Origin: a virus
Length of the DNA stretch: 64,000 nt
Direction: 5' to 3' (one strand)
IMG/VR virus record: IMGVR_UViG_3300025785_000009
Coordinates: 1 to 64,000 of that record
A program made the position numbers and the translations under genes. Positions 1 through 12,509 of the stretch are shown piece after piece. The notes beneath the pieces were generated by a model that worked only from the letters and a program-made list of their open reading frames with translations, was not told where the DNA came from and did not search any database. Position 1 is the stretch's first letter, and every line of letters begins with the position of its first letter.

Positions 1-18
1 TGCTCTACCTAATATAAA

Positions 19-95
<77 letters not shown>

Positions 96-99
96 ACGG

Positions 100-210
100 A
101 AAGCCGGTTACGTTTTTCATTTCGTCTAAGTTTCCCTAGTACAATTTTTCCGGCATAGTGGGAAGGACGCCGCCCCACTATCGTTTACACAATCAATCAG
201 GCGTCATAGC
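100..210 (-). ncRNA. Candidate structured RNA (H-type pseudoknot plus stem) between tRNAs
   Basis: Pairings 155-162/174-181 (8 bp), 166-171/200-205 (6 bp, pseudoknot), 103-107/150-154. Confidence 0.35.
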
Positions 211-211
211 T

Positions 212-286
212 TGGTGGAAATAAGTAGATTCGAACTACTGACCTGCGCCGTATGAAGGCGATGCACTACCGCTGTGCTATATTTCC
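212..286 (-). tRNA. tRNA with CAT anticodon (Met, possibly Ile2)
   Basis: Cloverleaf, anticodon loop TTCATAC, encoded CCA. Confidence 0.9.
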
Positions 287-293
287 GATTAAT

Positions 294-419
294 TTACTTG
301 GTTAATAACTCTATCGCTTGTTGCACTAAATCCAATTGGATATGTAGTCGGTGCGATATTTCTATGGCATCTAAGTTTCTACTTAGAAGTTCTTTGACTT
401 GCGCTAGCAATGGTGACAT
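294..419 (-). CDS. Small hypothetical protein (41 aa, MSPLLAQ...)
   Basis: Internal ATG of the 294..590 ORF; fills the gap between tRNAs; helical amphipathic sequence. Confidence 0.55.
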   Translation of the reverse strand: MSPLLAQVKELLSRNLDAIEISHRLHIQLDLVQQAIELLTK

Positions 420-460
420 ACATATATAACGCCTAGTGCTGTCAAAAAGTTTACAATGTT

Positions 461-550
461 TGGCGGAAACGGTGAGATTCGAACTCACGGTGCCTTTCGA
501 CACGACAGTTTTCAAGACTGTTGCAATAAACCGGACTCTGCCACATTTCC
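461..550 (-). tRNA. tRNA-Ser(TGA)
   Basis: Anticodon arm ACAGT-CTTGAAA-ACTGT, long variable arm, CCA. Confidence 0.95.
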
Positions 551-557
551 TAAATTT

Positions 558-633
558 TGGGGTAACTGATGGGATTCGAACCCACGACAACCGGAATCAC
601 AATCCGGGATTCTACCACTGAACTACAGTTACC
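558..633 (-). tRNA. tRNA-His(GTG)
   Basis: CCGGA-TTGTGAT-TCCGG arm, G-1 and C73, CCA. Confidence 0.95.
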
Positions 634-635
634 AT

Positions 636-710
636 TGGTCTGCCCTGCAGGAATCGAACCCACATTAAAAGGGTAGAAGCCTTCTGTATTATCCATTATA
701 CTAAGGGCAG
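636..710 (-). tRNA. tRNA-Arg(TCT)
   Basis: GAAGG-CTTCTAC-CCTTT arm, GGTTCGATT T-loop, CCA. Confidence 0.9.
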
Positions 711-729
711 ACATTAATAAATAGATCAT

Positions 730-1644
730 ATGAACAATCAATCACTTGCGTTCACGTACAAGTATTACAACATACCCAACCACCCAGTGGAAGGTAGATT
801 CCAAATACGTTTTTCTCCAATCCGACGTGCATTGATGCCGTGGAAGGATGAGGTTGCCAATACTATACAGGCCATATACCATTCTGCAGACAGTCCACTG
901 TTTGTGGCCTTGAGCGGTGGTATTGACAGCGAAATTGTTGCAAGAAGTCTGTTAGAAAATTCCATACCGTTTTCAGCAATAACAATCGAGTACACCAACG
1001 GGTTCAATGCTCACGACATTCAATATGCTCGAGATTTTTGTAAAAAATATTCAATCGAGCATCATACTGTCACCGTTGATCCAAATTATTTGTACACTAC
1101 CAAAATGGAACAGTACATTGATCATGGATACTGTGCTAGAAATTTATACAGATACCTGCAACTGTTTATATTAGAGACTGTTGAAAATCTAAATGGTACT
1201 GCTGTCTTGGGCGCCGAAACTCAGGCCTACTACTTGCTGGATGGTCAACTGCACATAAGATATTCCACCGAAATACTAAACACCATCCGGTGGTGCAAAA
1301 CAAACAATGTTGATCACTGTGTGAATTTTTTCTTGCACAATCCCGAATTGTATGCTGCGTATATGCAAATGCCCGACGTACAGCAAGTGTTAAACAATCC
1401 ACTGGCTTGCAAAAATACTGTTGAACTGGATCGCACCCGTAACGTGCCAAGCGGAGCCAGTCCTGAAAAAGAATTGGTGTATCGATTGGTGTGGCCCGAT
1501 CTAACAGAACGGCCCAAGTACAACGGATTTGAAGAAATCATTCAAATCCGTATCCACGCACAAGATCAACTGCGAGCACGTTTTCCTGAAGTGGGCTTTG
1601 TTTATATACCAGTTAACAAAATTAAAACTCAACTGGGTATCTGA
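730..1644 (+). CDS. PP-loop (adenine nucleotide alpha hydrolase / Asn synthase-like) protein
   Basis: VALSGGIDS PP-loop motif; ATAAATA just upstream. Confidence 0.75.
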   Translation: MNNQSLAFTYKYYNIPNHPVEGRFQIRFSPIRRALMPWKDEVANTIQAIYHSADSPLFVALSGGIDSEIVARSLLENSIPFSAITIEYTNGFNAHDIQYARDFCKKYSIEHHTVTVDPNYLYTTKMEQYIDHGYCARNLYRYLQLFILETVENLNGTAVLGAETQAYYLLDGQLHIRYSTEILNTIRWCKTNNVDHCVNFFLHNPELYAAYMQMPDVQQVLNNPLACKNTVELDRTRNVPSGASPEKELVYRLVWPDLTERPKYNGFEEIIQIRIHAQDQLRARFPEVGFVYIPVNKIKTQLGI

Positions 1645-1645
1645 T

Positions 1646-1719
1646 TGGAGCGGGACAGGAGAATCGAACTCCTAACCGAAGATTGGAAATCTGCTGTTTT
1701 ACCATTAAACTAGTCCCGC
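1646..1719 (-). tRNA. tRNA-Gly(TCC)
   Basis: Loop TTTCCAA, GCGGGAC acceptor, U73, CCA. Confidence 0.92.
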
Positions 1720-2819
1720 ACAAACACATCTTCTACTACGTTACGCATAATGAGTTGTTTAAACTCGGCTGGATCTGCTGCTTTTGGCGCACAAAATCCA
1801 CAGCGACAATACTCTTTCTTACATTTGATAATGGGCATACCTGAGGCCAATTGTGTTTTCAATGTTGCAATGATCTTTCCATCATCAACGTATCCTAGTG
1901 GCTCAACACGACCAGTGGTACTCATACGGCAATCTTTGTTGGTAAAAACTGCACGATCTACCTGTCGCAGGAACAAAAAGAACCAGTTCACGCTACACGA
2001 CCAACCTTCAAATCCTTGACGCTGCACAAAGGAGACATTGCTCTTTAGGTCACCATTTACACTCAAACGCCGTCCGCCACAACAGGCGCGACCTTCGTCA
2101 ATGGCCTGTACTGTGTCTTTGGTTTCAGTTATGGGAATCATCCAAAATGTTTTTAATTCGTTAAACTGTTGGCCGGTGTAAGTCCATTCCTCACCGCGGT
2201 TGTCCAAGGGCTTGACCACGTGACGTATGTTGTGATACTTGCAAAAATCTATTATAGACTTGCTGTCATCAAAGTATACAGGTTCGTTGTGCATCATAAC
2301 AATGCATTTGAATCTACGATTGTGTTCCTTGAGATACAAAATATTGTCCAAAAATTGTTGTTTTTGTTTGGGCAAATTCTCTGCGTGGTAGCTTACTGTA
2401 AACTCATCCACCAACGGAACTATTTCAGCCCAACGTCTGGGACCAACAATGGCATTGGTAGTACAGGTCACTGTCAGGTGCCAGCGATCCTGATATGGTT
2501 CGTAGCGACTGTGACACTCACGCAGGATCTCTACTATGTCAGGATGAAATACACTTTCACCACCGTAAACATTTAACACAACTTTGCGCTGACTAGGTCG
2601 TTTGTGTTGCATATATTGATCCACATACCTGTACATAAAATCAATTGATGCTAGGCATTCTTCCAAAGGAGGATGCTGAGTTGTGTTGTCGTGTCCCCCA
2701 TCTAGACCACTTGGGCAATATGAGCAATCCAAATTACATAATTTGGTCAATTCCCAATCTAGTAAAAAGGCCGGTACATTGGCAGGATCTAATGCAAATG
2801 CTATTGAGTTAACTGTCAT
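1710..2819 (-). CDS. Radical SAM protein
   Basis: CNLDCSYC (CxxxCxxC) and GGE motifs; C-terminal Cys cluster. Confidence 0.9.
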   Translation of the reverse strand: MTVNSIAFALDPANVPAFLLDWELTKLCNLDCSYCPSGLDGGHDNTTQHPPLEECLASIDFMYRYVDQYMQHKRPSQRKVVLNVYGGESVFHPDIVEILRECHSRYEPYQDRWHLTVTCTTNAIVGPRRWAEIVPLVDEFTVSYHAENLPKQKQQFLDNILYLKEHNRRFKCIVMMHNEPVYFDDSKSIIDFCKYHNIRHVVKPLDNRGEEWTYTGQQFNELKTFWMIPITETKDTVQAIDEGRACCGGRRLSVNGDLKSNVSFVQRQGFEGWSCSVNWFFLFLRQVDRAVFTNKDCRMSTTGRVEPLGYVDDGKIIATLKTQLASGMPIIKCKKEYCRCGFCAPKAADPAEFKQLIMRNVVEDVFVRD

Positions 2820-3757
2820 AATTCGCTTGTCAAATATTCTACTATCTCTTTTACTGTTTGTATCTTGGTAATATGTTTGACACCAGCACCAGCATAGATA
2901 TGCCCCACTGTGCCGTCACCCTGTATACCTGTGGTTAACGAACGTTCTCTGTTCCAATCACCTTCGGCAATTTTGTCGTTTACCACCGTATCTAAGTCGC
3001 CCAAGATCAAAGCATTTTGTTTTGTGTCAGGCAATTGTGTTGTGCCGTTTGCCGAGATCATTGATTGTTTGGCAGCTGTGCTTAGATTACTTTCTTGGCT
3101 GGCTGCAAATAGTGTACCTACCCCAACCGCAGTTGCACCCGATTCCACATAGTCTCGAACTTGCTTGGCTGTGCCTACTCCGCCGTACGGTATCAAAATT
3201 GCCGACGGAGTTAACTTTTTCTGTGCCTGGAACAACTCCCAGGTTGTGTAAGTATCTCCACTGGATCCAGCCGAATCACTGCCCTTAAGGCAGTAAGCAA
3301 AATTAAATTTGCTGTATTCGGGATTACGTCTACGATACATAACCTGCATCGGGCTTATATATTTGAGCATACCATTCATCACTGTGGCATAGTTGTTGCC
3401 TAACCGGAGCTTGATGCGTTCCCAATCGTTTAGTGTATCTCTGGGATTGTTGATGGCATATACTTCCAAGTGACTGACTTGATGTTCCTTGAGTATACGC
3501 ATTAGTGTTCGATCAAAGAAATGTTCAACACCGATTGAAAATACCAAATCGCTGGCACCAGCCGCGTGTCTAAATTCTTTAAGCAACGCATTGACCTGAT
3601 CGTAATTTTTTTCTGCCACTTCAAATTGCACAAACTCACTGACTACCAAGCTGGGCACAATGCCTGCTTCCCAACAGGCCAAGGCCAATGGCAAGTCTGA
3701 CACTTGATTCATTGCCGCTTCTACAATGGGGTATCTTGAATTAAAGTATGTTTTCAT
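2816..3757 (-). CDS. Nitronate monooxygenase / FabK-like flavin enzyme
   Basis: YPIVEAAMNQVSDLPLA N-terminus; GGVG...GATAVGVGTLFAASQES FMN-barrel motifs. Confidence 0.8.
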   Translation of the reverse strand: MKTYFNSRYPIVEAAMNQVSDLPLALACWEAGIVPSLVVSEFVQFEVAEKNYDQVNALLKEFRHAAGASDLVFSIGVEHFFDRTLMRILKEHQVSHLEVYAINNPRDTLNDWERIKLRLGNNYATVMNGMLKYISPMQVMYRRRNPEYSKFNFAYCLKGSDSAGSSGDTYTTWELFQAQKKLTPSAILIPYGGVGTAKQVRDYVESGATAVGVGTLFAASQESNLSTAAKQSMISANGTTQLPDTKQNALILGDLDTVVNDKIAEGDWNRERSLTTGIQGDGTVGHIYAGAGVKHITKIQTVKEIVEYLTSEL

Positions 3758-3762
3758 ATGTT

Positions 3763-3836
3763 TGGCGGGACTCCAGGGAATCGAACCCCGATCTGCGGTT
3801 TTGGAGACCGATGTAATGCCATTATACCAGAGACCC
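3763..3836 (-). tRNA. tRNA-Trp(CCA)
   Basis: Loop CTCCAAA, cloverleaf, CCA end. Confidence 0.92.
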
Positions 3837-3842
3837 AGATAC

Positions 3843-3918
3843 TGGTAGGACGTGACGGGTTCGAACCGCCGACATTCACGGTGTAAGCGTGACGCTCTAC
3901 CAGCTGAGCTAACGTCCT
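3843..3918 (-). tRNA. tRNA-Val(TAC)
   Basis: TCACG-CTTACAC-CGTGA arm, CCA. Confidence 0.95.
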
Positions 3919-3927
3919 AATTAAAAC

Positions 3928-4038
3928 TTTGCGTTCAGTGCTTGAACCTGTGGTAGCCCTGACTCTTCCTGGCTCCTCTCCACGTCGTCCGGATTCCTAG
4001 TGGAGTTTAGAGTTGTTCCAGTGTAGCTACTACGCAAA
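3928..4038. ncRNA. Candidate rod-shaped ncRNA within the tRNA array
   Basis: Nested complementary blocks tttgcgt/acgcaaa, gtagc/gctac, actct/agagt, ctccac/gtggag. Confidence 0.5.
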
Positions 4039-4041
4039 TCT

Positions 4042-4117
<76 letters not shown>

Positions 4118-4126
4118 TTTGAAACT

Positions 4127-4202
4127 TGGCGCTCCCGACCGGATTCGAACCGGTGTACTTGCCGTGAAAGGGCAATGTCCTAGGCCTCTAGACGACGGGA
4201 GC
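4127..4202 (-). tRNA. tRNA-Glu(TTC)
   Basis: TTGCC-CTTTCAC-GGCAA arm, CCA. Confidence 0.95.
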
Positions 4203-4641
4203 CTAAATCTTTTAATACACGATCTGGCGATATATCGCTGTAGATTTTTATACGAGTATCGGCAGTGATTTTTTGTTTAAACGGTTGTTCGCAATAGTAC
4301 TCTACTATAGGACTATTTAATACAGCCGCAAACTGCCAATAATCTTTTAAAAAATCATTTTTTCCTTTTTTACCAAGCACCAGTTTGAATGAATCCAAAT
4401 CATCGGGTATTTGATAAAACTTTATTTTGTTTGAAAACTTGCTCATCAAAATGTCAAACAAAATAAAATCGCCAAATGACACACAGTACACATCATCGAT
4501 TCCTTCAGCACGGTAGTTGTCGTACAAGTCGGCTATGCGTTTAACGTGTTCTATTGTGGGTTCGCTTTGTGGGCGGTTGATACCAAAAATGAGAATTCGT
4601 TTTGCAGATAGAGAATCAGATTCTAAAAAGTTGCCTTTCAT
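4180..4641 (-). CDS. Degenerate redoxin (peroxiredoxin-5-like) protein
   Basis: GIDDVYCVSFGD resembles Prx5 GVDEIYCVSVND; no PxxxTxxC motif. Confidence 0.6.
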   Translation of the reverse strand: MKGNFLESDSLSAKRILIFGINRPQSEPTIEHVKRIADLYDNYRAEGIDDVYCVSFGDFILFDILMSKFSNKIKFYQIPDDLDSFKLVLGKKGKNDFLKDYWQFAAVLNSPIVEYYCEQPFKQKITADTRIKIYSDISPDRVLKDLGSRRLEA

Positions 4642-4649
4642 AGAATCTG

Positions 4650-4678
4650 ATTATACTTTAAAACTATTTAAAAGTCAA
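4650..4678 (-). promoter_or_regulatory. Sigma70-type promoter with embedded TAAATA
   Basis: TTGACT-17 nt-TATAAT; ATG 8 nt downstream. Confidence 0.7.
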
Positions 4679-5629
4679 TTAACTTTTACGGATGCTGTCT
4701 ACCAAACCTGGTAAAAATACGGAATCATACTTGGCATACAATGGTTCTGTCAATGCTTCGAACTTGGCCATTTCTTCTGCTGATAATTCTTTGTATGTTA
4801 CACCAGTTTCAGCTGGATCTGCTTTGGCCAGCTTGTCGCTGTCTTCAACGGACCACTTGCGCTCTAAACGTGCAGCATTGATAGCAGCTTGGCTTAGTTT
4901 GGCTTGTAGATCTTCGCTTAAACTGCTCCACCATTTCTCGCTAACGATAATGCTGGTCAAGAACAAGCTGTGTTTTGTATCTGTAACATAACGCTTGTTG
5001 GTCTTGTTTACAGTGGCCAACAAACGTGGAACTGTTGTGTCAACTGCATCGTGCTGGTCGCCTTCTGCGTGAACAGCTGCCCAGTAGTCTTCAATAGCGT
5101 GTGGATCAGGTTGACCGCCAATGGCTTCGATTGTGTCGATACCGATTGGGTTTGTGCCTGTATAAAAACTTAGATTTTTAAAGTCTGCCAAAGATTTGAT
5201 TTCTTCGTCACTGGCAACAATACGGAAACCACCTGAGTATGTAAAAGCTAAACCACGTGCTGGTGATTTTTCTTTTAGCTCGCTCAACATAGCTTGGCCG
5301 ATTTCGCCTTCTAGAACTCTAGTAGCGTGGTCGTGATCTTTAAATAGGAATGGTAGTTCCAAAGCCATAAAAGCTGGAACGTTCCACTTCCATAATTGGC
5401 TAATATGCAACTGGCTCATTTCAATTTTGCCTTGGTCCATATAAACCATTGGATTTTCTCTTGTGCCATTGTTGTGCTTTTCAGCATATTCTGTAGCAGT
5501 AAGAATTTCGATGTCAATTGCACCGTTTGTGCTGTTGCGTACTTCTTCAGCAAAAGCTTCAGCTGTACGCAAAAATAGATGTACTGGCTCGTGAGCAATT
5601 AACCACTTAATTTTGTTTGTTTGTTGCAT
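4679..5629 (-). CDS. TRAP-type (DctP family) solute-binding protein without signal peptide
   Basis: ELPFLFKDHDHA, SGGFR, IVSEKWWSSLSEDLQ motifs typical of DctP. Confidence 0.85.
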   Translation of the reverse strand: MQQTNKIKWLIAHEPVHLFLRTAEAFAEEVRNSTNGAIDIEILTATEYAEKHNNGTRENPMVYMDQGKIEMSQLHISQLWKWNVPAFMALELPFLFKDHDHATRVLEGEIGQAMLSELKEKSPARGLAFTYSGGFRIVASDEEIKSLADFKNLSFYTGTNPIGIDTIEAIGGQPDPHAIEDYWAAVHAEGDQHDAVDTTVPRLLATVNKTNKRYVTDTKHSLFLTSIIVSEKWWSSLSEDLQAKLSQAAINAARLERKWSVEDSDKLAKADPAETGVTYKELSAEEMAKFEALTEPLYAKYDSVFLPGLVDSIRKS

Positions 5630-5652
5630 TTAGGAATCTCCTGGATTGTAAG

Positions 5653-5660
5653 TATTTATA
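5653..5660 (-). promoter_or_regulatory. T4-type late promoter TATAAATA
   Basis: Exact TATAAATA upstream of the DctP-like gene. Confidence 0.6.
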
Positions 5661-5700
5661 CACTTGATAAGTATATTTATTACTAATCCGCTATTTGGGC

Positions 5701-5865
5701 TTAATTAGTACCGTCGTTGACGTTTAGTACTGTTTCACTGATAACTTTACCATTCAACAACAACTGTACTGTAAAATTGTCGCTGTCGTCGTATGGACCA
5801 ACAGTATTAAACGAGTTGATTGTTAAATTTGCTGTTAGAAACGCAATTAAATCTTGTTCTGTCAT
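5701..5865 (-). CDS. Small hypothetical protein (54 aa, MTEQDLIAF...)
   Basis: AGGAG Shine-Dalgarno before the internal ATG, downstream of tRNA-Tyr. Confidence 0.6.
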   Translation of the reverse strand: MTEQDLIAFLTANLTINSFNTVGPYDDSDNFTVQLLLNGKVISETVLNVNDGTN

Positions 5866-5891
5866 ATCTGCTCCTGTACAACTATTTAGCT

Positions 5892-5975
5892 TGGTGGAGA
5901 ATACTGGGATCGAACCAGTCGTGTCAAAGACGGCGGATTTACAGTCCACTGCATCACCATTGATGCTTCTTCTCC
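5892..5975 (-). tRNA. tRNA-Tyr(GTA)
   Basis: Loop CTGTAAA, long variable arm, CCA. Confidence 0.95.
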
Positions 5976-6003
5976 AAATTTATGTGTTCTCTGTTGCCAA
6001 AGA

Positions 6004-6105
6004 ATATAGCAAAGCCTACTAGTTTGTCAAATGGACGACTATGAGTCTTTTCAATTGACCTGCGCTTTCCAGGCGCGACTATTCGTCTAATAGACTTTGC
6101 TATAT
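6004..6105 (-). ncRNA. Candidate ncRNA closed by a 19-bp terminal stem
   Basis: ATATAGCAAAGTCTATTAG pairs with CTAGTAGGCTTTGCTATAT; two G-U wobbles indicate the minus strand. Confidence 0.5.
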
Positions 6106-6215
6106 ACTTATTTTACTCCCGACGTTGTCGCCATCAGTTTGATCCAAGTACCCGCCCCTTTATGGCTTTTTTAGAGTGGTCCAACGGAGCTCGTTTCCTA
6201 CGTCCACTTTACTGC

Positions 6216-6374
6216 TTATTTTTTAGAACGGGCCTTTTCTAACAGTCGGGCCTGTTCAACCAACGCCTGCACTTGTGCCTGCGCTCTTGCTACCTTTGCT
6301 TCCATCAAAGCAACCTTCTGCTCTGGAGAAAGAAAGAACTTGTTTTCTTTTTCTAGTTTTTTATGTTCTAACAT
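6216..6374 (-). CDS. Small coiled-coil protein (52 aa, MLEHKKLEKENKFFLSPEQKVALMEAKVARAQAQVQALVEQARLLEKARSKK)
   Basis: Strong SD AAGGAG; first ORF after the attenuator terminator; too short for the ORF track. Confidence 0.7.
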   Translation of the reverse strand: MLEHKKLEKENKFFLSPEQKVALMEAKVARAQAQVQALVEQARLLEKARSKK

Positions 6375-6387
6375 TACCTTCTCCTTT

Positions 6388-6422
6388 AAAAACAAAAAAC
6401 CCTGGGTGTTTAGTCCAGGGTC
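6388..6422 (-). terminator. Intrinsic terminator of the putative attenuator
   Basis: ACCCTGG/CCAGGGT stem followed by TTTTTGTTTTT. Confidence 0.8.
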
Positions 6423-6470
6423 TTAATTAAAATATATGGTTAGATTGATATCTTAATTAAGACCCCCAGG
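6418..6470 (-). promoter_or_regulatory. Antiterminator hairpin competing with the terminator
   Basis: 13-bp perfect inverted repeat 6453-6465/6418-6430 (GGGTCTTAATTAA/TTAATTAAGACCC) overlapping the terminator 5' arm. Confidence 0.7.
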
Positions 6471-6569
6471 TTCACGATCACTATTAATCATTGTAAACAC
6501 TGACCAATAGGCTAGCCCGCCTAGGTTTGGCTGTGGTGCGGATAGATGTTTACAAGTTCTAAGTGTCAT
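6453..6569 (-). CDS. Putative attenuator leader peptide (38 aa, MTLRTCKHLSAPQPNLGGLAYWSVFTMINSDREPGGLN) containing all 20 amino acids
   Basis: Starts 10 nt after a consensus -10 box; stop codon lies inside the antiterminator 5' arm. Confidence 0.7.
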   Translation of the reverse strand: MTLRTCKHLSAPQPNLGGLAYWSVFTMINSDREPGGLN

Positions 6570-6579
6570 AATGTTATCA

Positions 6580-6608
6580 ATTATACATTTATTTATCTTT
6601 TGTGTCAA
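6580..6608 (-). promoter_or_regulatory. Consensus sigma70 promoter with embedded late-type ATAAATA
   Basis: TTGACA (6608-6603), 17 nt, TATAAT (6585-6580). Confidence 0.85.
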
Positions 6609-6652
6609 CCTGGTGTGGTAAATAATTATATTCCCTGAAAGTACACTACTAT

Positions 6653-7300
6653 ATGCAACTAATCAAAGCAAGCGCCGGCGTCATTGACCAATTCAATTCG
6701 ATGTATCCATCCAAATCCGAAAAAGTTACCAATGCCACTGTTGACACTATTCCTTACAGCACCATATATGGGTTTGTATTGGACGGACAGGCTCGTTTAC
6801 CAAACGGTTGGATTGCCAGCAAAGATCAATATTTCTGTTATACACCAAAAGACGGCGACACAGTTGCAGTTGACGGCGTTGCTGTTATTATAACACGATT
6901 GGGATTTATCGGTCAACAGTCAGTGGGTGGCCCGATTGAACAAAATGGACGTTTGTGTTATATTGATGGTTGCAGTGACAGCCTGTTGATTTATCCGCCA
7001 AGATTGGGAGACCCCAGTTTGAATATGTTGTATTTTCCACCCGGCATTGATCAAACATTTCACATACATCCTAGTTTAAGACTGGGTATGGTAGTGCGCG
7101 GCAAGGGTTACAGTTGTTTCCAAGATCAAGAAATTGCACTTGAAGTAGGAAATATTTTTTCGATCGAAGAACGCGAATTACACAGATTTAGAACTGAAGA
7201 CGAATCGATGACCGTTATTGCGTTTCATCCCGACGGTGATTGGGGTCCTACTGATCAAAATCACACAATGTTAAACAGAACCTACATTACCACTAAGTAG
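6653..7300 (+). CDS. Cupin-domain protein
   Basis: QTFHIHPS...RELHRF metal-binding cupin motifs. Confidence 0.8.
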   Translation: MQLIKASAGVIDQFNSMYPSKSEKVTNATVDTIPYSTIYGFVLDGQARLPNGWIASKDQYFCYTPKDGDTVAVDGVAVIITRLGFIGQQSVGGPIEQNGRLCYIDGCSDSLLIYPPRLGDPSLNMLYFPPGIDQTFHIHPSLRLGMVVRGKGYSCFQDQEIALEVGNIFSIEERELHRFRTEDESMTVIAFHPDGDWGPTDQNHTMLNRTYITTK

Positions 7301-8438
7301 TACGTTTTAAAATCCTGCCCAATTCTTGTCTGGTGGGTGTGTCTTCCAGGCTGTAGCGACGCCAATCCTTGTCTATAGCAAAAATGTCTGCTTGTGCATC
7401 GCTGTACAGTCTGCTCATTGACTTTTCTTCACGTTTGTTGGACCAGTATAGATCGTTGCCATCAAAATCAAAAATGTATTTTTTTGGAAAATACTTGGGA
7501 TCTTCCACTGTGCGTTCTCTGCGTAGGTCTTTGGTCAACATACTCCAAATTTGCAATTCGTCTGCGGCATAAAATCTATACAATGTATTTTCATAAAAAT
7601 CTTTGAACTGAGCTTGATCTAGATTTTTAGCATAGTTTAAAATTTTACGCAACAGTACATCGTCAAGTTTTAGATTGAAATTTATCCACCAAAGAAAATC
7701 ATACACAGTTTCAATTGGTATGGGACTGTGTTTGATAGTTTCTTTGACCAGGTCCACTGTGAAGTATAATCCATTCAGCGTGGTTTCAAATATGGAAGTT
7801 GATGTTTGTCTGGCAATCATATCCCGGGGGTCAACTTGGCTCCATGGCGAATTCAACAGATCAAATTGTTTCTTGTATGCCAACTTGTGTATGGGTGTTG
7901 ACCCCATACATTGATTTCCAGCTTCACCGTCAACCACGAGAATCTTGTTGTAGTTGCCGGCATCAATGACAAAATCAGTTATGTCTTCCACTTGCAATCT
8001 TGGCTTGATGAAATTGTAATAAAAGTATGCGTTTTCTCCCACAGACAACACAGGATCGCACAGCACGGTAATACGGTCTAGCACATCTTCATCAGCCACT
8101 TTGAGCATACTGACCAAAATGCTGGTGCTGTCAATACCGCCCGACCAACAAAAGTATGGCTTACGTCCGGTCTGTTTGATCCGCTGGCAAAAGGCCTCTG
8201 CTACAGTTTCTATTACCACATCAAATCGTAATTCATTATTGGTTATGTCCGGAATAGGGCATAAGGTAGGTGCAAGATCCCACGGAGTGTTTAGTTTGTT
8301 TACACGAGACTGTATCATTGGCGGGAAATGATCGATTCCCATTGTGTTGAACCAACCGTTATACTCGTAACTTTCGTCCCGCAGATACGGATCGTACAGG
8401 GCCAATCGATCTAGCGGAATATAAATTAAATCACGCAT
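7293..8438 (-). CDS. PP-loop (Asn synthase-like) protein
   Basis: WSGGIDST and VDGEAGNQ motifs. Confidence 0.75.
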   Translation of the reverse strand: MRDLIYIPLDRLALYDPYLRDESYEYNGWFNTMGIDHFPPMIQSRVNKLNTPWDLAPTLCPIPDITNNELRFDVVIETVAEAFCQRIKQTGRKPYFCWSGGIDSTSILVSMLKVADEDVLDRITVLCDPVLSVGENAYFYYNFIKPRLQVEDITDFVIDAGNYNKILVVDGEAGNQCMGSTPIHKLAYKKQFDLLNSPWSQVDPRDMIARQTSTSIFETTLNGLYFTVDLVKETIKHSPIPIETVYDFLWWINFNLKLDDVLLRKILNYAKNLDQAQFKDFYENTLYRFYAADELQIWSMLTKDLRRERTVEDPKYFPKKYIFDFDGNDLYWSNKREEKSMSRLYSDAQADIFAIDKDWRRYSLEDTPTRQELGRILKRTT

Positions 8439-9072
8439 ACAATTTGTCCAACTGCTGTAATATCAAACTAGACACACGAAGATCCTGATCAGTTTTTAAA
8501 TTGTTTGTGGCCATCTCAAATAATTTTTCTTCTATATCGGCCACTGTCAATTCTGTTTTACAAATTTGCTTGAACTGTTTGATAACAGCGTTGTCAAGAC
8601 TGTGGTCAGATTTGGTTCTCAACTGTTGCAATATTCCACGCTTGTAATTGGGCAGTGGAATTTTGTTAAACAAAGTCACAAAGTGATGAGCCAGCATCAT
8701 CTGTTGTTGTAGATCCTGCTGTCTTTCCACAGAAAGTCTACTGTCTGCACGTTGATTGATCAACAGTTGACCGGCATTTTCTTCGTGAACGTGTGTGAAC
8801 ATATTGGATATGATAGAAGTTTCTACCAGGCGTATGTTTGACACTACGGGAATTTGCCAATCCAAGCAAACGCTGTTGTCCAACAAGCCCGGTTGATAAT
8901 TGTCAAACGATTGCAAATCAAATGCGATTACATTCAATTTGCTAAACGAAAATATTTCTCTAACTTCCAGTAACACTTCAAGATCGTCGGACAATAGCCA
9001 TATTGCTCGGCTAAACGAGTCCACCAATGCATAACGTCCCGGTATTCCAAAGAAGAAATATTTACTATTCAT
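8431..9072 (-). CDS. Hypothetical protein
   Basis: 213-aa ORF overlapping the downstream PP-loop gene. Confidence 0.7.
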   Translation of the reverse strand: MNSKYFFFGIPGRYALVDSFSRAIWLLSDDLEVLLEVREIFSFSKLNVIAFDLQSFDNYQPGLLDNSVCLDWQIPVVSNIRLVETSIISNMFTHVHEENAGQLLINQRADSRLSVERQQDLQQQMMLAHHFVTLFNKIPLPNYKRGILQQLRTKSDHSLDNAVIKQFKQICKTELTVADIEEKLFEMATNNLKTDQDLRVSSLILQQLDKLYA

Positions 9073-9082
9073 AGTTCACACG

Positions 9083-9169
9083 TGGTGCGAGTGGCCAGAA
9101 TCGAACTGGCACGGGGTCTCCCCCGAGAGATTTTAAGTCTCTTGTGTCTACCGATTTCACCACACTCGC
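9083..9169 (-). tRNA. tRNA-Leu(TAA)
   Basis: AGAGA-CTTAAAA-TCTCT arm, long variable arm, CCA. Confidence 0.95.
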
Positions 9170-9175
9170 AAATTT

Positions 9176-9260
9176 TGGTGCCCCAAAGGAGACTTGAACT
9201 CCTACACCTTGCGGTACCGGCTTCTAAGACCGGCGTGTCTACCAATTCCACCATCGGGGC
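9176..9260 (-). tRNA. tRNA-Leu(TAG)
   Basis: Loop CTTAGAA, long variable arm, CCA. Confidence 0.93.
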
Positions 9261-9283
9261 ATAACTTTACTTAGCAACAATTT

Positions 9284-9358
9284 TGGTGGGCCTTGTTGGA
9301 ATCGGACCAACACTCCAACGATTATGAGTCGTTTGCTTTACCATTAAGCTAAAGGCCC
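9284..9358 (-). tRNA. tRNA-Ile2(CAT)-like
   Basis: AACGA-CTCATAA-TCGTT arm and GGGCCTT acceptor resembling bacterial Ile2; T-loop TCC variant. Confidence 0.8.
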
Positions 9359-10264
9359 TTATTCAAATACTCCTGTGAATTGTGCGCTCATTGCAGTAAA
9401 CATTCGTGGATCGCGCTCAATCAACACAAATCTGCGATTACGTTTTTGGGCCGCTAATCCGGTACTACCCGAACCAGCAAAAGTGTCTAAGACTAAATCT
9501 CCTTCGCGGCTCAACAGTTCAATCAGGTATTCCAACAACTCTACAGGTTTCTGTGTAGGATGAATCTTTTTGCCAATGCCGCCACTAAATGTAATAGTAT
9601 TAGGCACTACGCATTGTACAACATCACCAGATCGTTTGCGATCTTTCAACATTTGCTGTGCTTCTTTTAATGCTGTTGCAAACACCTGCTCAATGTCTTG
9701 TTCGTTATCGGCATCTTTGGCATACTTGTAGACAATACTTGAAATCTTATCTGCAGCTGTGTACCGTTCAACAATAGTGCCACGTGCTGCATCAGCATTG
9801 AATGTACGATCGCCTTTAGGTTTGATGCCCCACAAGATATATTCGCAACCACTAACCAAATTAACCTGTCGATTGAACGGAACTGCCGCAGGCTTTTTCC
9901 AAGTAATAACACGCTTGGGTTCAAAGCCGGCCGTTTCCATTATCCGCCACAGGTAACTGATGTATTGATCACTGATGAATATAGCAAAGGTGCCGCCTTT
10001 TCTCAACTTCTTGAACCAGAACGCCGCCCAGGATTCCATCTGTGCCACAAACTCGTCGTGTGTGACACTATCCCAATCTTGTTCAAACGATTCTGAAAAC
10101 TTTTGACTGTGAATGGTGTTTTTGTTTTTGCCAGTTTCTGGATCAATCCATTCGGGCTTGGCACCACCCTCGGAGATATTGTAAGGCGGATCCGTTAATA
10201 GCAGATCAACCGAAAGGTCAGCAATGTCAGCATCTGCCAACAACATATCTTTGTTTAGTAGCAT
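9359..10264 (-). CDS. DNA N6-adenine/N4-cytosine methyltransferase (beta class)
   Basis: TDPPY, HPTQKP and DTFAGSG motifs. Confidence 0.92.
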   Translation of the reverse strand: MLLNKDMLLADADIADLSVDLLLTDPPYNISEGGAKPEWIDPETGKNKNTIHSQKFSESFEQDWDSVTHDEFVAQMESWAAFWFKKLRKGGTFAIFISDQYISYLWRIMETAGFEPKRVITWKKPAAVPFNRQVNLVSGCEYILWGIKPKGDRTFNADAARGTIVERYTAADKISSIVYKYAKDADNEQDIEQVFATALKEAQQMLKDRKRSGDVVQCVVPNTITFSGGIGKKIHPTQKPVELLEYLIELLSREGDLVLDTFAGSGSTGLAAQKRNRRFVLIERDPRMFTAMSAQFTGVFE

Positions 10265-10270
10265 CTATAG

Positions 10271-10299
10271 ATTATAGCTTATTGAGAATTTTGTGTCAA
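10271..10299 (-). promoter_or_regulatory. Consensus sigma70 promoter; leaderless methyltransferase mRNA
   Basis: TTGACA-17-TATAAT; ATG 6 nt after the -10 box. Confidence 0.8.
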
Positions 10300-11747
10300 T
10301 ACACAATCATAAAACCTGGCAAATTGTTTCCGGGTTTATGACTAGGTGCGTGATATTGGAATTTGAATTGCAATTCTGAAAATGGTTTAGACGAAGCCAA
10401 AACTTGTCCGTTATCGGTTATATCCAGGCGTCCCAACCAAGCAGGACTTTGGTTAACAATGTTGGTCATCATTGTGGCATATTCTCCAGCACTGGGTCCA
10501 CGCAATACCGAATTCAGAGTGGCAACACCAAGTGCGTAGGTCAAAATATCAGTGATTGATTTGACCGGATCCTTGCGGAAGCTGGGAAATCCAGCTTCCT
10601 TTTCTGTGGGCTTTTCTTTGCCTTTGGCTACACCCATAAAGTAATTGCCGTCGGCTGGTAGTCCAGTTGGTTTACCCCAATTGCCAGCTGTTAAAATTGG
10701 ATAGATAAATTTGAGAGCCGAGCCATAGTCTTTTTCTCCGGTACCTTTGCCTAGACCGTTTTTGGTAACCAATGCAGCCAGGCCAGCCCAGTCTACAAAT
10801 TTGCCGCCCAACACTTCAACCGCTTTGTTGTATTCAGGCAAACTGATGTGTGCTGATGCGGCAATAATTTTGTCTACGTTTTTGCCGCCAGCTTTGGGAT
10901 GATAGTTTTTAAACAAGGCAAATAATTTTTCTTGTTTCTTATCGTTGGCAATGGTTTTTTCAAAGTTGTCCATCAAGTCTTGGATACTTTTGAAGCTGGT
11001 ACCTGATCCTGTCAAGCTCTTGACGCTGTACTTGTTTTTGCCAATGATAACATCGATCAAAGGAAAGTTACCCTCGGCTGGAAATTCAATGGCATCGTTT
11101 TTCTGTGCCATCTTGATTGGAGCTAAGATTTCACCAAAGTCTACACTGAGTTGATTTCTAGCACGAGCACTTAGATTGGCATTGGCGTCAGGTGTCAAAG
11201 CCGGTTGTGCTCCTGCAGCCACTTCAATCAGTTCTAATAGGATCTGTTGTAGTTCAGGACGAGTTTTGGTTTTGCTGATAACTGCGGCTCTTGTTTGTAC
11301 AATCAATTCATCACGCTTCATTGGACGTCCCGACAAGCCCAAGGTAACTGGTGTAAATTCTTTGATACTCACCGTAACACCACCTGTATCGTCGTCTTTT
11401 TTGCCCGAACCTGCAACAACAATACTGTAAAACACATTACCGGCGCTGTAGCTGAGAATGTTGCCGCGATATTTGCTGCTCAGTGATGCTTGTAGTGGTT
11501 CCAGTGGTAAATTGTCTAGACCCACTGCTTTAAAATATTGTGCTATTGTTGCTTTGTCAGATCCAAACACACGGATATAGGGAATTTGTTTGTCGTTTTT
11601 GACTTCAAAACGAATATCTGGCATATCGCGTTGCATACTGGCTGCCAGATATTTGATTTCGTTACGATCAGCAAACCTTTCATCGGGTTCGGGCGCCAAT
11701 GCTGTTTCAAATAGCTCAACTAATTTTTGTAGGTTCATTGTATTCAT
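10296..11747 (-). CDS. Hypothetical protein, possible PD-(D/E)xK nuclease
   Basis: FGE...FPLIDVIIGKNKYSVKS resembles a PD-(D/E)xK core; adjacent to the methyltransferase. Confidence 0.45.
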   Translation of the reverse strand: MNTMNLQKLVELFETALAPEPDERFADRNEIKYLAASMQRDMPDIRFEVKNDKQIPYIRVFGSDKATIAQYFKAVGLDNLPLEPLQASLSSKYRGNILSYSAGNVFYSIVVAGSGKKDDDTGGVTVSIKEFTPVTLGLSGRPMKRDELIVQTRAAVISKTKTRPELQQILLELIEVAAGAQPALTPDANANLSARARNQLSVDFGEILAPIKMAQKNDAIEFPAEGNFPLIDVIIGKNKYSVKSLTGSGTSFKSIQDLMDNFEKTIANDKKQEKLFALFKNYHPKAGGKNVDKIIAASAHISLPEYNKAVEVLGGKFVDWAGLAALVTKNGLGKGTGEKDYGSALKFIYPILTAGNWGKPTGLPADGNYFMGVAKGKEKPTEKEAGFPSFRKDPVKSITDILTYALGVATLNSVLRGPSAGEYATMMTNIVNQSPAWLGRLDITDNGQVLASSKPFSELQFKFQYHAPSHKPGNNLPGFMIVY

Positions 11748-11753
11748 ATTTAG

Positions 11754-12509
11754 CTATTTTCGTTCTATATCTGTTTCGTCACAGCGTGAGCCATATTGTA
11801 TTTCTACTATTTTACACGGCTCTGTGAAAGGGTTTGCCAATTGGTGCCATTCGTTTACCAGTATACTGTACTGATCGTGCCGGTTAAGAGTTTGTGACGG
11901 CATTTCGTATCCGTTGTTGGTCAATGAACGAACTACACATTGACCTTCACTCACGTGCCAGTGTTCCCAACGTTCCGCGTGTCGTTGCATACTCAAACTT
12001 TGCCCAGGGTTTACAGTAAGTTCTTTTACTTTGGTGCCAGGCACTTCGTGTAGCACACGATAGTAACCCCAAGGACGTTCTGTACGGGGTGCTTTCCATT
12101 CTTGCAAAATCCAACTGCTTGAATTGGCTTTGTTTTCCCCGCCTACACCAAATACAAATTCTACACCCTCTACTGACATTTCAGGAATATTATCCGGGGT
12201 GCGGTCGCCACCGTTGGCAAAGATAATTTTGGCATCGGGATAGTGGGCTTGAACCTGTTGTATCAGGTGTCTCGCTGAACCGTCCTCGTCGTCAAAGGTA
12301 TAAACTTCGTCCACCATGGACAAATTGTTTACTATGCAAAGTCGTTCATTCCAGGGCATAAATGCGCGACCTTTTTTGCGTTCTAGCCACTCGTCACTGT
12401 TGATTCCCACAATCAGCAAATCGCCCAAGGTAGACGCAGCTTTCAAGTACGCAATATGCCCACTGTGCAAAGGATCAAATCCGCCGCTTACTACTGCAAT
12501 TTTTGTCAT
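11754..12509 (-). CDS. Cytidylyltransferase-family (HxGH) domain fused to a mannose-6-phosphate isomerase type II cupin
   Basis: GGFDPLHSGH and ANGGDR; ERPWG and LSMQRH motifs. Confidence 0.88.
   Translation of the reverse strand: MTKIAVVSGGFDPLHSGHIAYLKAASTLGDLLIVGINSDEWLERKKGRAFMPWNERLCIVNNLSMVDEVYTFDDEDGSARHLIQQVQAHYPDAKIIFANGGDRTPDNIPEMSVEGVEFVFGVGGENKANSSSWILQEWKAPRTERPWGYYRVLHEVPGTKVKELTVNPGQSLSMQRHAERWEHWHVSEGQCVVRSLTNNGYEMPSQTLNRHDQYSILVNEWHQLANPFTEPCKIVEIQYGSRCDETDIERK

Follow-up and report, generated by a model that had tools for sequence, protein, structure and literature searches.

A candidate ribosome-mediated attenuator that heads the tRNA genes of a jumbo phage, with a leader peptide whose composition follows the tRNAs downstream

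Introduction

What might a 38-codon open reading frame that uses every one of the 20 amino acids be doing at the head of a phage tRNA region? This question is raised by a locus in the IMG/VR virus record IMGVR_UViG_3300025785_000009, in which a promoter, a short ORF and an intrinsic terminator follow one another on the minus strand, upstream of a series of tRNA genes. The original prediction was that the ORF is the leader of an attenuator, such that a shortage of any tRNA would let transcription continue into the phage tRNA genes. Here we examine the element and its relatives computationally. Judging from the sequences, we consider it likely that this is a ribosome-mediated transcription attenuator that heads the tRNA region of a jumbo phage and samples the tRNA repertoire under its control.

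The record is 140.8 kb in length with a GC content of about 43%, and it carries genes for a terminase, a tail sheath and a tail tube. As CheckV estimates the completeness of these 140.8 kb at about 40%, we take the record to be a fragment of a jumbo-phage genome. The window analysed here is the first 64 kb of the record (64,000 nucleotides), and all positions refer to it. Consensus-type sigma-70 promoters are rare on the 140-kb contig: there are only four, all of them within the tRNA region. Searches of cultured-phage databases by blastn and tblastn, for which we used the element, a neighbouring protein and the leaders of two other subfamilies, gave no true match. An Rfam 15 cmscan of positions 1-12000 at E <= 1 returned only tRNAs and chance plastid matches, with none at 6388-6608.

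Results and discussion

Promoter and leader ORF

The promoter had been described as perfect, with an ATG 10 nt past the -10 box that opens a 38-codon ORF containing all 20 amino acids, and this description is borne out base for base on the minus strand (Table 1). Both hexamers match the sigma-70 consensus in our promoter scan (12/12 positions), and a motif in the spacer, GATAAATAA, is kept across relatives. The position of the ATG is that of the expected transcription start, and there is no Shine-Dalgarno (SD) sequence ahead of the ORF. It had also been suggested that other genes nearby are leaderless, and we could identify two of them, both real protein genes of the phage with PHROG matches (a DNA methyltransferase and a redoxin-like protein), in which the ATGs are 6 and 8 nt past consensus -10 boxes. 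Because these two genes begin so close to the -10 box, leaderless starts appear to be used in this phage. Leaderless translation of the leader ORF is thus plausible, and we infer that the ORF is translated, with indirect backing from the same two genes and from the conservation of the reading frame described below.

Table 1. Positions of the features of the element and of the region downstream within the 64-kb window.
Feature	Position	Strand	Basis or detail
-35 hexamer TTGACA	6603..6608	minus	sequence and promoter scan; kept in all homologs
-10 hexamer TATAAT, 17-nt spacer	6580..6585	minus	sequence and promoter scan
Near-leaderless 38-codon leader ORF with all 20 amino acids	6453..6569	minus	ATG 6569-6567; TAA 6455-6453
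Two-part hairpin inside the ORF	6503..6531	minus	folding, conservation
H1 5' arm (last four codons, stop and 5 nt past it)	6448..6465	minus	sequence, covariation
H1 3' arm	6418..6435	minus	sequence, covariation, RNAalifold
Intrinsic terminator	6388..6421	minus	7-bp stem 6421-6415/6405-6399, T6-G-T5 to 6388
SD AAAGGAG (6387-6381) and 52-aa helical ORF (6374-6216)	6216..6387	minus	sequence
Internal promoter (6030-6003) and tRNA-Tyr(GTA) (5975-5895)	5895..6030	minus	promoter scan; Rfam
tRNA array: Glu, Gly, Val, Trp, Gly, Arg, His, Ser, Met, Pro	19..4202	minus	ARAGORN

The hairpin within the ORF consists of an outer stem of 5 bp, a 3-nt bulge, an inner stem of 5 bp and a 6-nt loop. The hairpin is conserved in nucleotide sequence, four relatives (L049, L053, L039, and L028) have compensatory variants of it, and the invariance of the peptide core at the nucleotide level is attributable to it. 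By analogy with the 1:2 hairpin of the trp leader, it is a candidate pause hairpin for RNA polymerase. The possibility that the conserved core is a tRNA-like structure or a degenerate tRNA was also considered and rejected, as it has no cloverleaf and no match in ARAGORN or Rfam.

Antiterminator and terminator

The end of the ORF is part of a second hairpin, which we refer to as H1. It had been predicted that a hairpin containing the stop codon could be extended to about 18 bp and would overlap the terminator, and H1 is indeed a stem of 18 pairs (one of them G-U) in which ACCC (6421-6418) is common to the end of the 3' arm and to the start of the terminator 5' arm. The terminator has a 9-nt loop (6414-6406, ACTAAACAC) and was outside our consensus scan solely due to the 8-nt loop limit of that scan; the same loop is found, with compensatory changes in the stem, in 58 unique contexts. 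A further pairing that had been proposed, between CCTGGG (6470-6465) and the terminator 3' arm, is present in the minimum free energy fold of the window and is not conserved in relatives such as L037, so this part of the prediction stands for the window only.

H1 covaries. In an alignment of 12 close relatives, 93% of the cells are paired and six pairs have changed on both sides, while 0 of 500 shuffles were as good. The RNAalifold consensus is likewise H1, extended over 5 nt of the terminator 5' arm. There is also a second architectural type, in which the H1 5' arm lies six to eight codons ahead of the stop, and here too the arms co-vary, with matching substitutions and insertions on both sides in the printed sequences. 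Across the family, the stop or the final codons always fall within the antiterminator 5' arm or immediately ahead of it, and this antiterminator covaries and overlaps the terminator; such an arrangement had been anticipated for homologous loci. Covariation of the terminator stem on alignment A3 is uninformative because an indel has shifted the register.

The leader RNA as a whole folds better than 200 of 200 shuffled sequences (z = -4.8). This strong structure, together with the conserved hairpins, the missing SD and the fact that termination would yield a discrete RNA of about 180 nt, could also fit a non-coding RNA, either an sRNA or the processed 5' leader of a tRNA precursor, in which the open frame is incidental. 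We regard this as very improbable: the element belongs to no Rfam family at E <= 1, the frame is open with indels in multiples of three and an ATG fixed at the transcription start, and there is no explanation at the RNA level for the amino-acid coverage and the match to tRNAs that are described below.

To evaluate the competition between H1 and the terminator, we used partition-function folding of the nascent RNA, with the ribosome represented by its footprint. For the window, the terminator has a probability of 0.00 in ribosome-free RNA, of no more than about 0.2 while the A site is at any of codons 1-31, and of at least about 0.9 once it has moved to codon 32 or beyond, as far as the stop. 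Among the 67 leaders in our collection (see below), a footprint placed over the stop lets the terminator form in 60, and 33 are switch-like at equilibrium in this footprint-constrained folding, as is the window itself. In some close relatives (L055, L049, and L053) the terminator is predicted to form regardless. Suppression of the terminator (P <= 0.2) was seen in 43% of native leaders versus 2% when the upstream sequence was shuffled, and the competition between H1 and the terminator is therefore specific. Modelling of this kind points to the direction of the switch in vivo, namely that a ribosome at the end of the ORF would favour termination. The opposite polarity is unlikely, as about 30 nt separate the stop from the terminator 5' arm further downstream, which places that arm outside the ribosome footprint, and L105 and the 41-aa leader of L079 are the only leaders in which a ribosome at the stop makes the terminator clearly less probable than an early stall does.

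The region downstream of the terminator

The first gene past the terminator is a 52-aa ORF whose SD begins 1 nt past the T tract. The ORF is promoterless and is retained behind the leader in relatives, and searches of PHROGs, Pfam and the ESM Atlas gave no family for it. From its position, the 52-aa protein is the predicted first product of read-through in the window. Further downstream, at least 11 tRNAs had been expected; ARAGORN identifies ten, all on the same strand, interspersed with enzyme genes and cut by the contig end, and the eleventh is a tRNA-Tyr that ARAGORN missed and only Rfam found. Most of the tRNAs in the window are fed independently by internal promoters at 6030, 4753, and 4678, and on this layout the window element would directly gate only the 52-aa protein, with an additive contribution of read-through to the rest.

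Relatives of the element

We collected 67 distinct leaders, homologous or analogous to that of the window, from uncultured jumbo-phage contigs; they form 33 clusters at 65% identity. Three independent anchors were used for this, namely the downstream ORF, the peptide core and the terminator alone, and further searches were anchored on the divergent cupin gene and on a 17-nt core pattern. Searching viral and metagenome contigs with the 52-aa ORF makes no use of the leader, just as searching with the terminator loop and 3' arm makes no use of the ORF. All 67 leaders have a promoter, a leaderless or near-leaderless ATG, an ORF of 20-53 codons, a terminator, and tRNAs downstream.

The terminator anchor returned 75 loci in 58 unique contexts, and 47 of the 58 have a sigma-70 promoter, an ATG 0-11 nt past the -10 box and an ORF of 20-49 codons that ends shortly 5' of the terminator. 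The remaining 11 are mostly cut by contig ends or have promoters that the pattern missed, and the ORF is visible by eye in most of them. One context found in this way, L116, resembles an unrelated ordinary terminator. Wherever the flanking sequence suffices, loci of the first collection have the element at the head of a same-strand tRNA array, and the terminator-pattern loci with enough flank have same-strand tRNAs within about 0.03-1.8 kb. In family members other than the window, tRNAs start 34-230 nt past the terminator.

The reading frame is preserved across these loci. Alignment gaps between the window and its distant relatives are all multiples of three, and the frame is open in essentially all homologs. 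Substitutions at codon positions 1, 2, and 3 number 1268, 1282, and 1392, i.e. they are equal; with no third-position excess, purifying selection on the peptide was not seen, and the constraint on its sequence is weak. The peptides of different subfamilies cannot be aligned, while their architecture is shared. A frame that is kept while its sequence is free to change is typical of regulatory leader ORFs rather than of functional microproteins, and we read the leader in this way. The expectation that homologous loci would retain the ORF, its frame and its amino-acid diversity thus holds at about 50% divergence.

These results bear on the possibility that the ORF is a gene for a small functional protein, expressed from its own promoter and closed by an ordinary terminator, such that the hairpins are mere 3' structure of the mRNA and the adjacency to tRNAs is coincidental. 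Many phage microproteins exist, and one large subfamily has a conserved peptide core (the LAYW motif region). This core is conserved at the nucleotide level as a covarying hairpin, however, and the substitution pattern and the unalignable peptides within a constant architecture speak against selection on a protein product. In addition, the downstream ORF or tRNAs are promoterless and abut the terminator, and the amino-acid content of the leader follows the tRNAs downstream (see below). We therefore give the small-protein reading a low probability. Alternatively, the peptide may have a function of its own that accounts for its conserved core. In the window there is also a radical-SAM gene about 4 kb downstream of the element, and for this reason we considered whether the ORF is the precursor of a RiPP. 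This was rejected, as the radical-SAM gene has no synteny with the element in relatives, and neighbouring protein genes in general show none.

Amino-acid coverage of the leader

All 20 amino acids are present in 24 of the 67 leaders, 19 are present in 9 and 18 in another 18, for a total of 51 leaders with at least 18. Complete coverage is therefore the commonest state and not a rule, and some subfamilies have only 15-16 types. The chance of finding all 20 in 38 codons had been put at 1% or less, and our calculations bring it below that figure with each null model: 0.12% with the composition of the phage proteome, 0.2% in windows of real proteins, and 0.6% in random ORFs with the base composition of the leader itself. 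Random ORFs of equal base composition have a mean of about 16-17.5 types and reach all 20 with a probability of 0.3-4% at 35-48 codons; across the nulls, the probability is about 0.1-4% per peptide.

The way in which the coverage is maintained is informative as well. Among homologs, the position of the only Cys corresponds to any of three non-homologous alignment columns, and shifts are likewise seen for Phe, Lys, Gln, Ile, Asp, Glu, and His. What is conserved is the frame and the coverage, not the peptide. We assessed this with a conservative branch-wise test, in which residues shared with a relative were held fixed and those that differ were redrawn from the family composition. The probability per branch was 0.014-0.26, and the product over eight branches is about 5e-9. 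Coverage extends to codon boxes in the case of serine, for which both boxes occur in 14 of 14 close homologs. The last 4-6 codons, which are the zone where a stall would go unsensed, contribute the fewest unique amino acids; the single Glu codon of the window leader is within this predicted insensitive zone.

Leader content and the tRNAs downstream

If the leader reports on the supply of tRNAs, its composition might be related to the tRNAs that follow it. For this comparison, we counted as one sub-array all tRNAs that follow a leader until either another leader element or the end of the flank is reached, and we applied greedy clustering. Of 293 tRNA amino-acid types, only 6 have no counterpart in their own leader, compared with 23.1 ± 3.6 in shuffled pairings of leaders and arrays, for which the minimum was 8 in 100,000. 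The match holds without short leaders, with incomplete leaders only, and with clustering at 45% (P <2e-5 to 0.009), with the proviso that these permutation P-values are optimistic because related phages inherit both the leader and the array by descent. The sub-array-bounded test was a second attempt; in a coarser version, based on 9 representatives from single-linkage clustering at 55% and on the entire downstream flank, including any part past a second leader, the match did not reach significance (P = 0.33). When codons rather than amino acids are compared, 277 of the 305 tRNA species find a strictly cognate codon in the leader that heads them, compared with 255.7 ± 5.2 after shuffling, and in four- and six-fold families the codon-level match has P = 0.003. 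For the window, the leader contains such a codon for each of the ten ARAGORN tRNAs, and its TAT codon would be read by the tRNA-Tyr(GTA) that Rfam identified.

Some leaders are without certain amino acids, and these leaders head sub-arrays without the corresponding tRNAs. Three contigs (L111, L144, and L081) have tandem leaders. The first leader is followed by tRNAs in the order Glu-Tyr-Asp-(Cys or Ile-Arg-His)-Met, and the second leaders are without most of the amino acids of the first sub-array: those absent are Cys and Asp; Glu, His, Arg, and Tyr; or Asp, His, Arg, Val, and Tyr. The second sub-array begins Trp-Ala-Ser-Asn-Thr in L144 and L081 and Ala-Trp-Asn-Ser-Thr in L111. A further example is a leader type of 22 codons (L002 and L060), in which nine amino acids are absent. 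It abuts a tRNA-Gly, and its array is without tRNAs for seven of those nine amino acids. The amino-acid and codon repertoire of the leader thus tracks the tRNAs downstream, a result that goes beyond the original prediction.

This result also bears on a reading in which the ORF is translated and acts in cis, and in which the element senses something other than tRNA supply. It could be a general sensor of transcription-translation coupling or of translation inhibition, an early-to-middle timer, or a switch of the opposite polarity to that modelled above. The attenuators of bmrCD (PMC4191407), vmlR (PMC9226507), and msrD (PMC10314930) answer any stall, the ribosome-free state of our element is also predicted to read through, and single codons would confer a weak amino-acid specificity. 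A generic sensor would need no particular repertoire, yet the coverage is selected and is matched to the tRNAs, tandem leaders included. For these reasons we think it unlikely that the element is blind to tRNA supply.

Proposed mechanism

The element combines the features by which attenuators are recognized: a short ORF at the 5' end, a terminator before the regulated genes, an antiterminator that overlaps it, and codons that match the product. We propose the following sequence of events for an attenuator of this kind. Host RNA polymerase would start at the sigma-70 promoter, and a ribosome would initiate on the leaderless or near-leaderless AUG. The mid-ORF hairpin probably pauses the polymerase, which would couple it to the ribosome. 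When all of the needed aminoacyl-tRNAs are present, the ribosome would reach the last codons or the stop and cover the H1 5' arm; the terminator would then form, and transcription would stop at about 6390. When the ribosome is delayed at any earlier codon (roughly the first 30), or when it does not initiate, H1 would form first and sequester the ACCC of the terminator 5' arm, and the polymerase would read through into the 52-aa ORF and then into the tRNA array. Since the leader samples the amino acids and, for the most part, the codons of the downstream tRNAs, this would constitute a demand-driven feedback on tRNA supply.

Anatomy, conservation, covariation, amino-acid coverage and the correspondence between leader and array come directly out of the computation. 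Translation of the ORF, the pause, the direction of the switch in vivo and the physiological trigger are inferred; the trigger may be decay of host tRNAs, anticodon nucleases, or starvation, and a role in counter-defence is likewise conjectural. We lean, with less assurance than for the attenuator itself, towards a broader view, in which uncultured jumbo phages have a family of repertoire-matched attenuators. On this view, a leaderless mini-ORF in front of each tRNA sub-array has a codon for nearly all of the tRNAs that follow, in many cases with all 20 amino acids; the loss of any one of these tRNAs would de-attenuate the replacement tRNAs, and the whole would form a self-correcting circuit and a conditional counter-defence.

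If this is true, the element would be the first ribosome-based feedback sensor for tRNA supply, and the first attenuator that samples a whole tRNA repertoire instead of one amino acid. It would also represent a regulatory use of leaderless translation in jumbo phages. The design principle is that the content of a leader should predict which tRNA depletions induce read-through. In practical terms, the element marks the starts of tRNA transcription units in uncultured jumbo phages, and at about 220 nt it would be a compact natural part with which to report global or tRNA-specific translation capacity.

Comparison with known systems

A full-text literature search found no description of a leader peptide, an attenuator or feedback regulation for phage tRNA arrays. 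The closest likeness is to the trp, his, leu, thr, ilv, and pheL attenuators (PMC3082878), which likewise have a short leader ORF, an internal pause-like hairpin, an antiterminator 5' arm that the ribosome covers, an overlapping terminator, and codons that match the product. There are also several differences. Classical leaders have runs of one to three amino acids, whereas the phage leaders have one or a few codons for each amino acid served by the array, and a single codon per amino acid should be much less sensitive than the codon runs of trp and his. The output is biosynthetic enzymes in the trp type and tRNA genes with a 52-aa protein here, and trp-type leaders are SD-led, whereas the phage element is leaderless and phage-encoded. 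Finally, the 1:2 hairpin of the trp type provides termination by default, whereas no anti-antiterminator is evident in most members of the phage family, and it is for this reason that read-through is predicted for the untranslated state.

The attenuators of bmrCD (with the leader BmrB), vmlR, and msrD cited above resemble the phage element in that a stall anywhere favours the antiterminator and reports the general state of translation. They connect antibiotics to resistance genes, and the composition of their leaders is not matched to the output, whereas the phage leader tracks the tRNAs downstream. T-box riboswitches likewise tie the status of tRNA to the antitermination of genes in the tRNA and aminoacylation economy. 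A T-box binds one uncharged tRNA through a specifier codon and the T-box sequence, with no translation involved, whereas the phage element would use a translating ribosome, and the Rfam 15 cmscan gave no T-box match at the element. Phage tRNA arrays are themselves regarded as a means of compensation and counter-defence, and they are reported to rescue infection upon cleavage of host tRNAs (PMC10264068, PMC11464382, and PMC11555353). To this picture, the element described here would add a layer of sensing and regulation.

Promoters and the read-through region

The entire 140.8-kb contig has only four consensus-type sigma-70 promoters, all of which lie within the tRNA region (window 4650-10299, minus strand). 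At three of them, an ATG follows the -10 box by 6-10 nt, starting a methyltransferase gene, a redoxin-like gene and the leader ORF (the 38-codon frame containing all 20 amino acids at the head of the tRNA array); leaderless early genes thus look like a characteristic of this phage. The spacer of the leader promoter carries an A-rich motif that occupies the same place in L026, L031, L035, L036 and L051, which are loci in related uncultured phage contigs. A conserved motif inside a promoter spacer is unusual; this one might represent either a site for a regulator or a late-type promoter embedded there.

Read-through past the leader terminator would also co-transcribe the stretch behind the 52-aa ORF (the first read-through product), in which there was neither an ORF nor a tRNA call. 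Part of this stretch was a candidate structured RNA in the original prediction, made from the sequence alone. Beyond it lies a tRNA-Tyr with its own promoter (6030-6003, minus strand); this tRNA was found with Rfam, and ARAGORN made no call for it.

Features discussed in this section, with coordinates
Feature	Location	Strand	Remarks
Leader-promoter spacer, 17 nt	window 6586-6602	-	carries the A-rich GATAAATAA motif, conserved across diverged phages
Unassigned gap, ~165 nt	window 6050-6215	-	52-aa ORF to next promoter
Class-II tRNA-Tyr(GTA)	window 5895-5975	-	Rfam, 35.4 bits
Cupin-domain protein gene	window 6653-7300	+	divergent from leader promoter
Second, long element	L059 (record G001), 3680-4500 of its reverse complement		before the phage's other tRNA cluster
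Anticodon-CTA tRNA	L028:11805-11880		ARAGORN
Anticodon-CTA tRNA	L061 (record G001), 1785-1859 of its reverse complement		ARAGORN
Anticodon-CTA tRNA	L081:1637-1715		ARAGORN

Variation among related phages

Among relatives, the element is found either upstream of the cupin gene on the opposite strand or downstream of it on the same strand, which indicates local inversion or rearrangement. The phage with the 22-codon leader, a short type lacking nine amino acids, also carries a second element whose frame is in two pieces, an 18-codon leaderless ORF and a 48-codon ORF; the latter supplies exactly the amino acids absent from the short leader.

Several related phages encode amber-suppressor-like tRNAs with anticodon CTA, labeled "Pyl" by ARAGORN, one of them within a leader-controlled sub-array (the tRNAs behind one leader). 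Because TAG is the stop codon of several leaders in the family, suppression would let the ribosome continue into H1, the antiterminator hairpin, and the terminator, which hints that stop-codon recoding may be involved.
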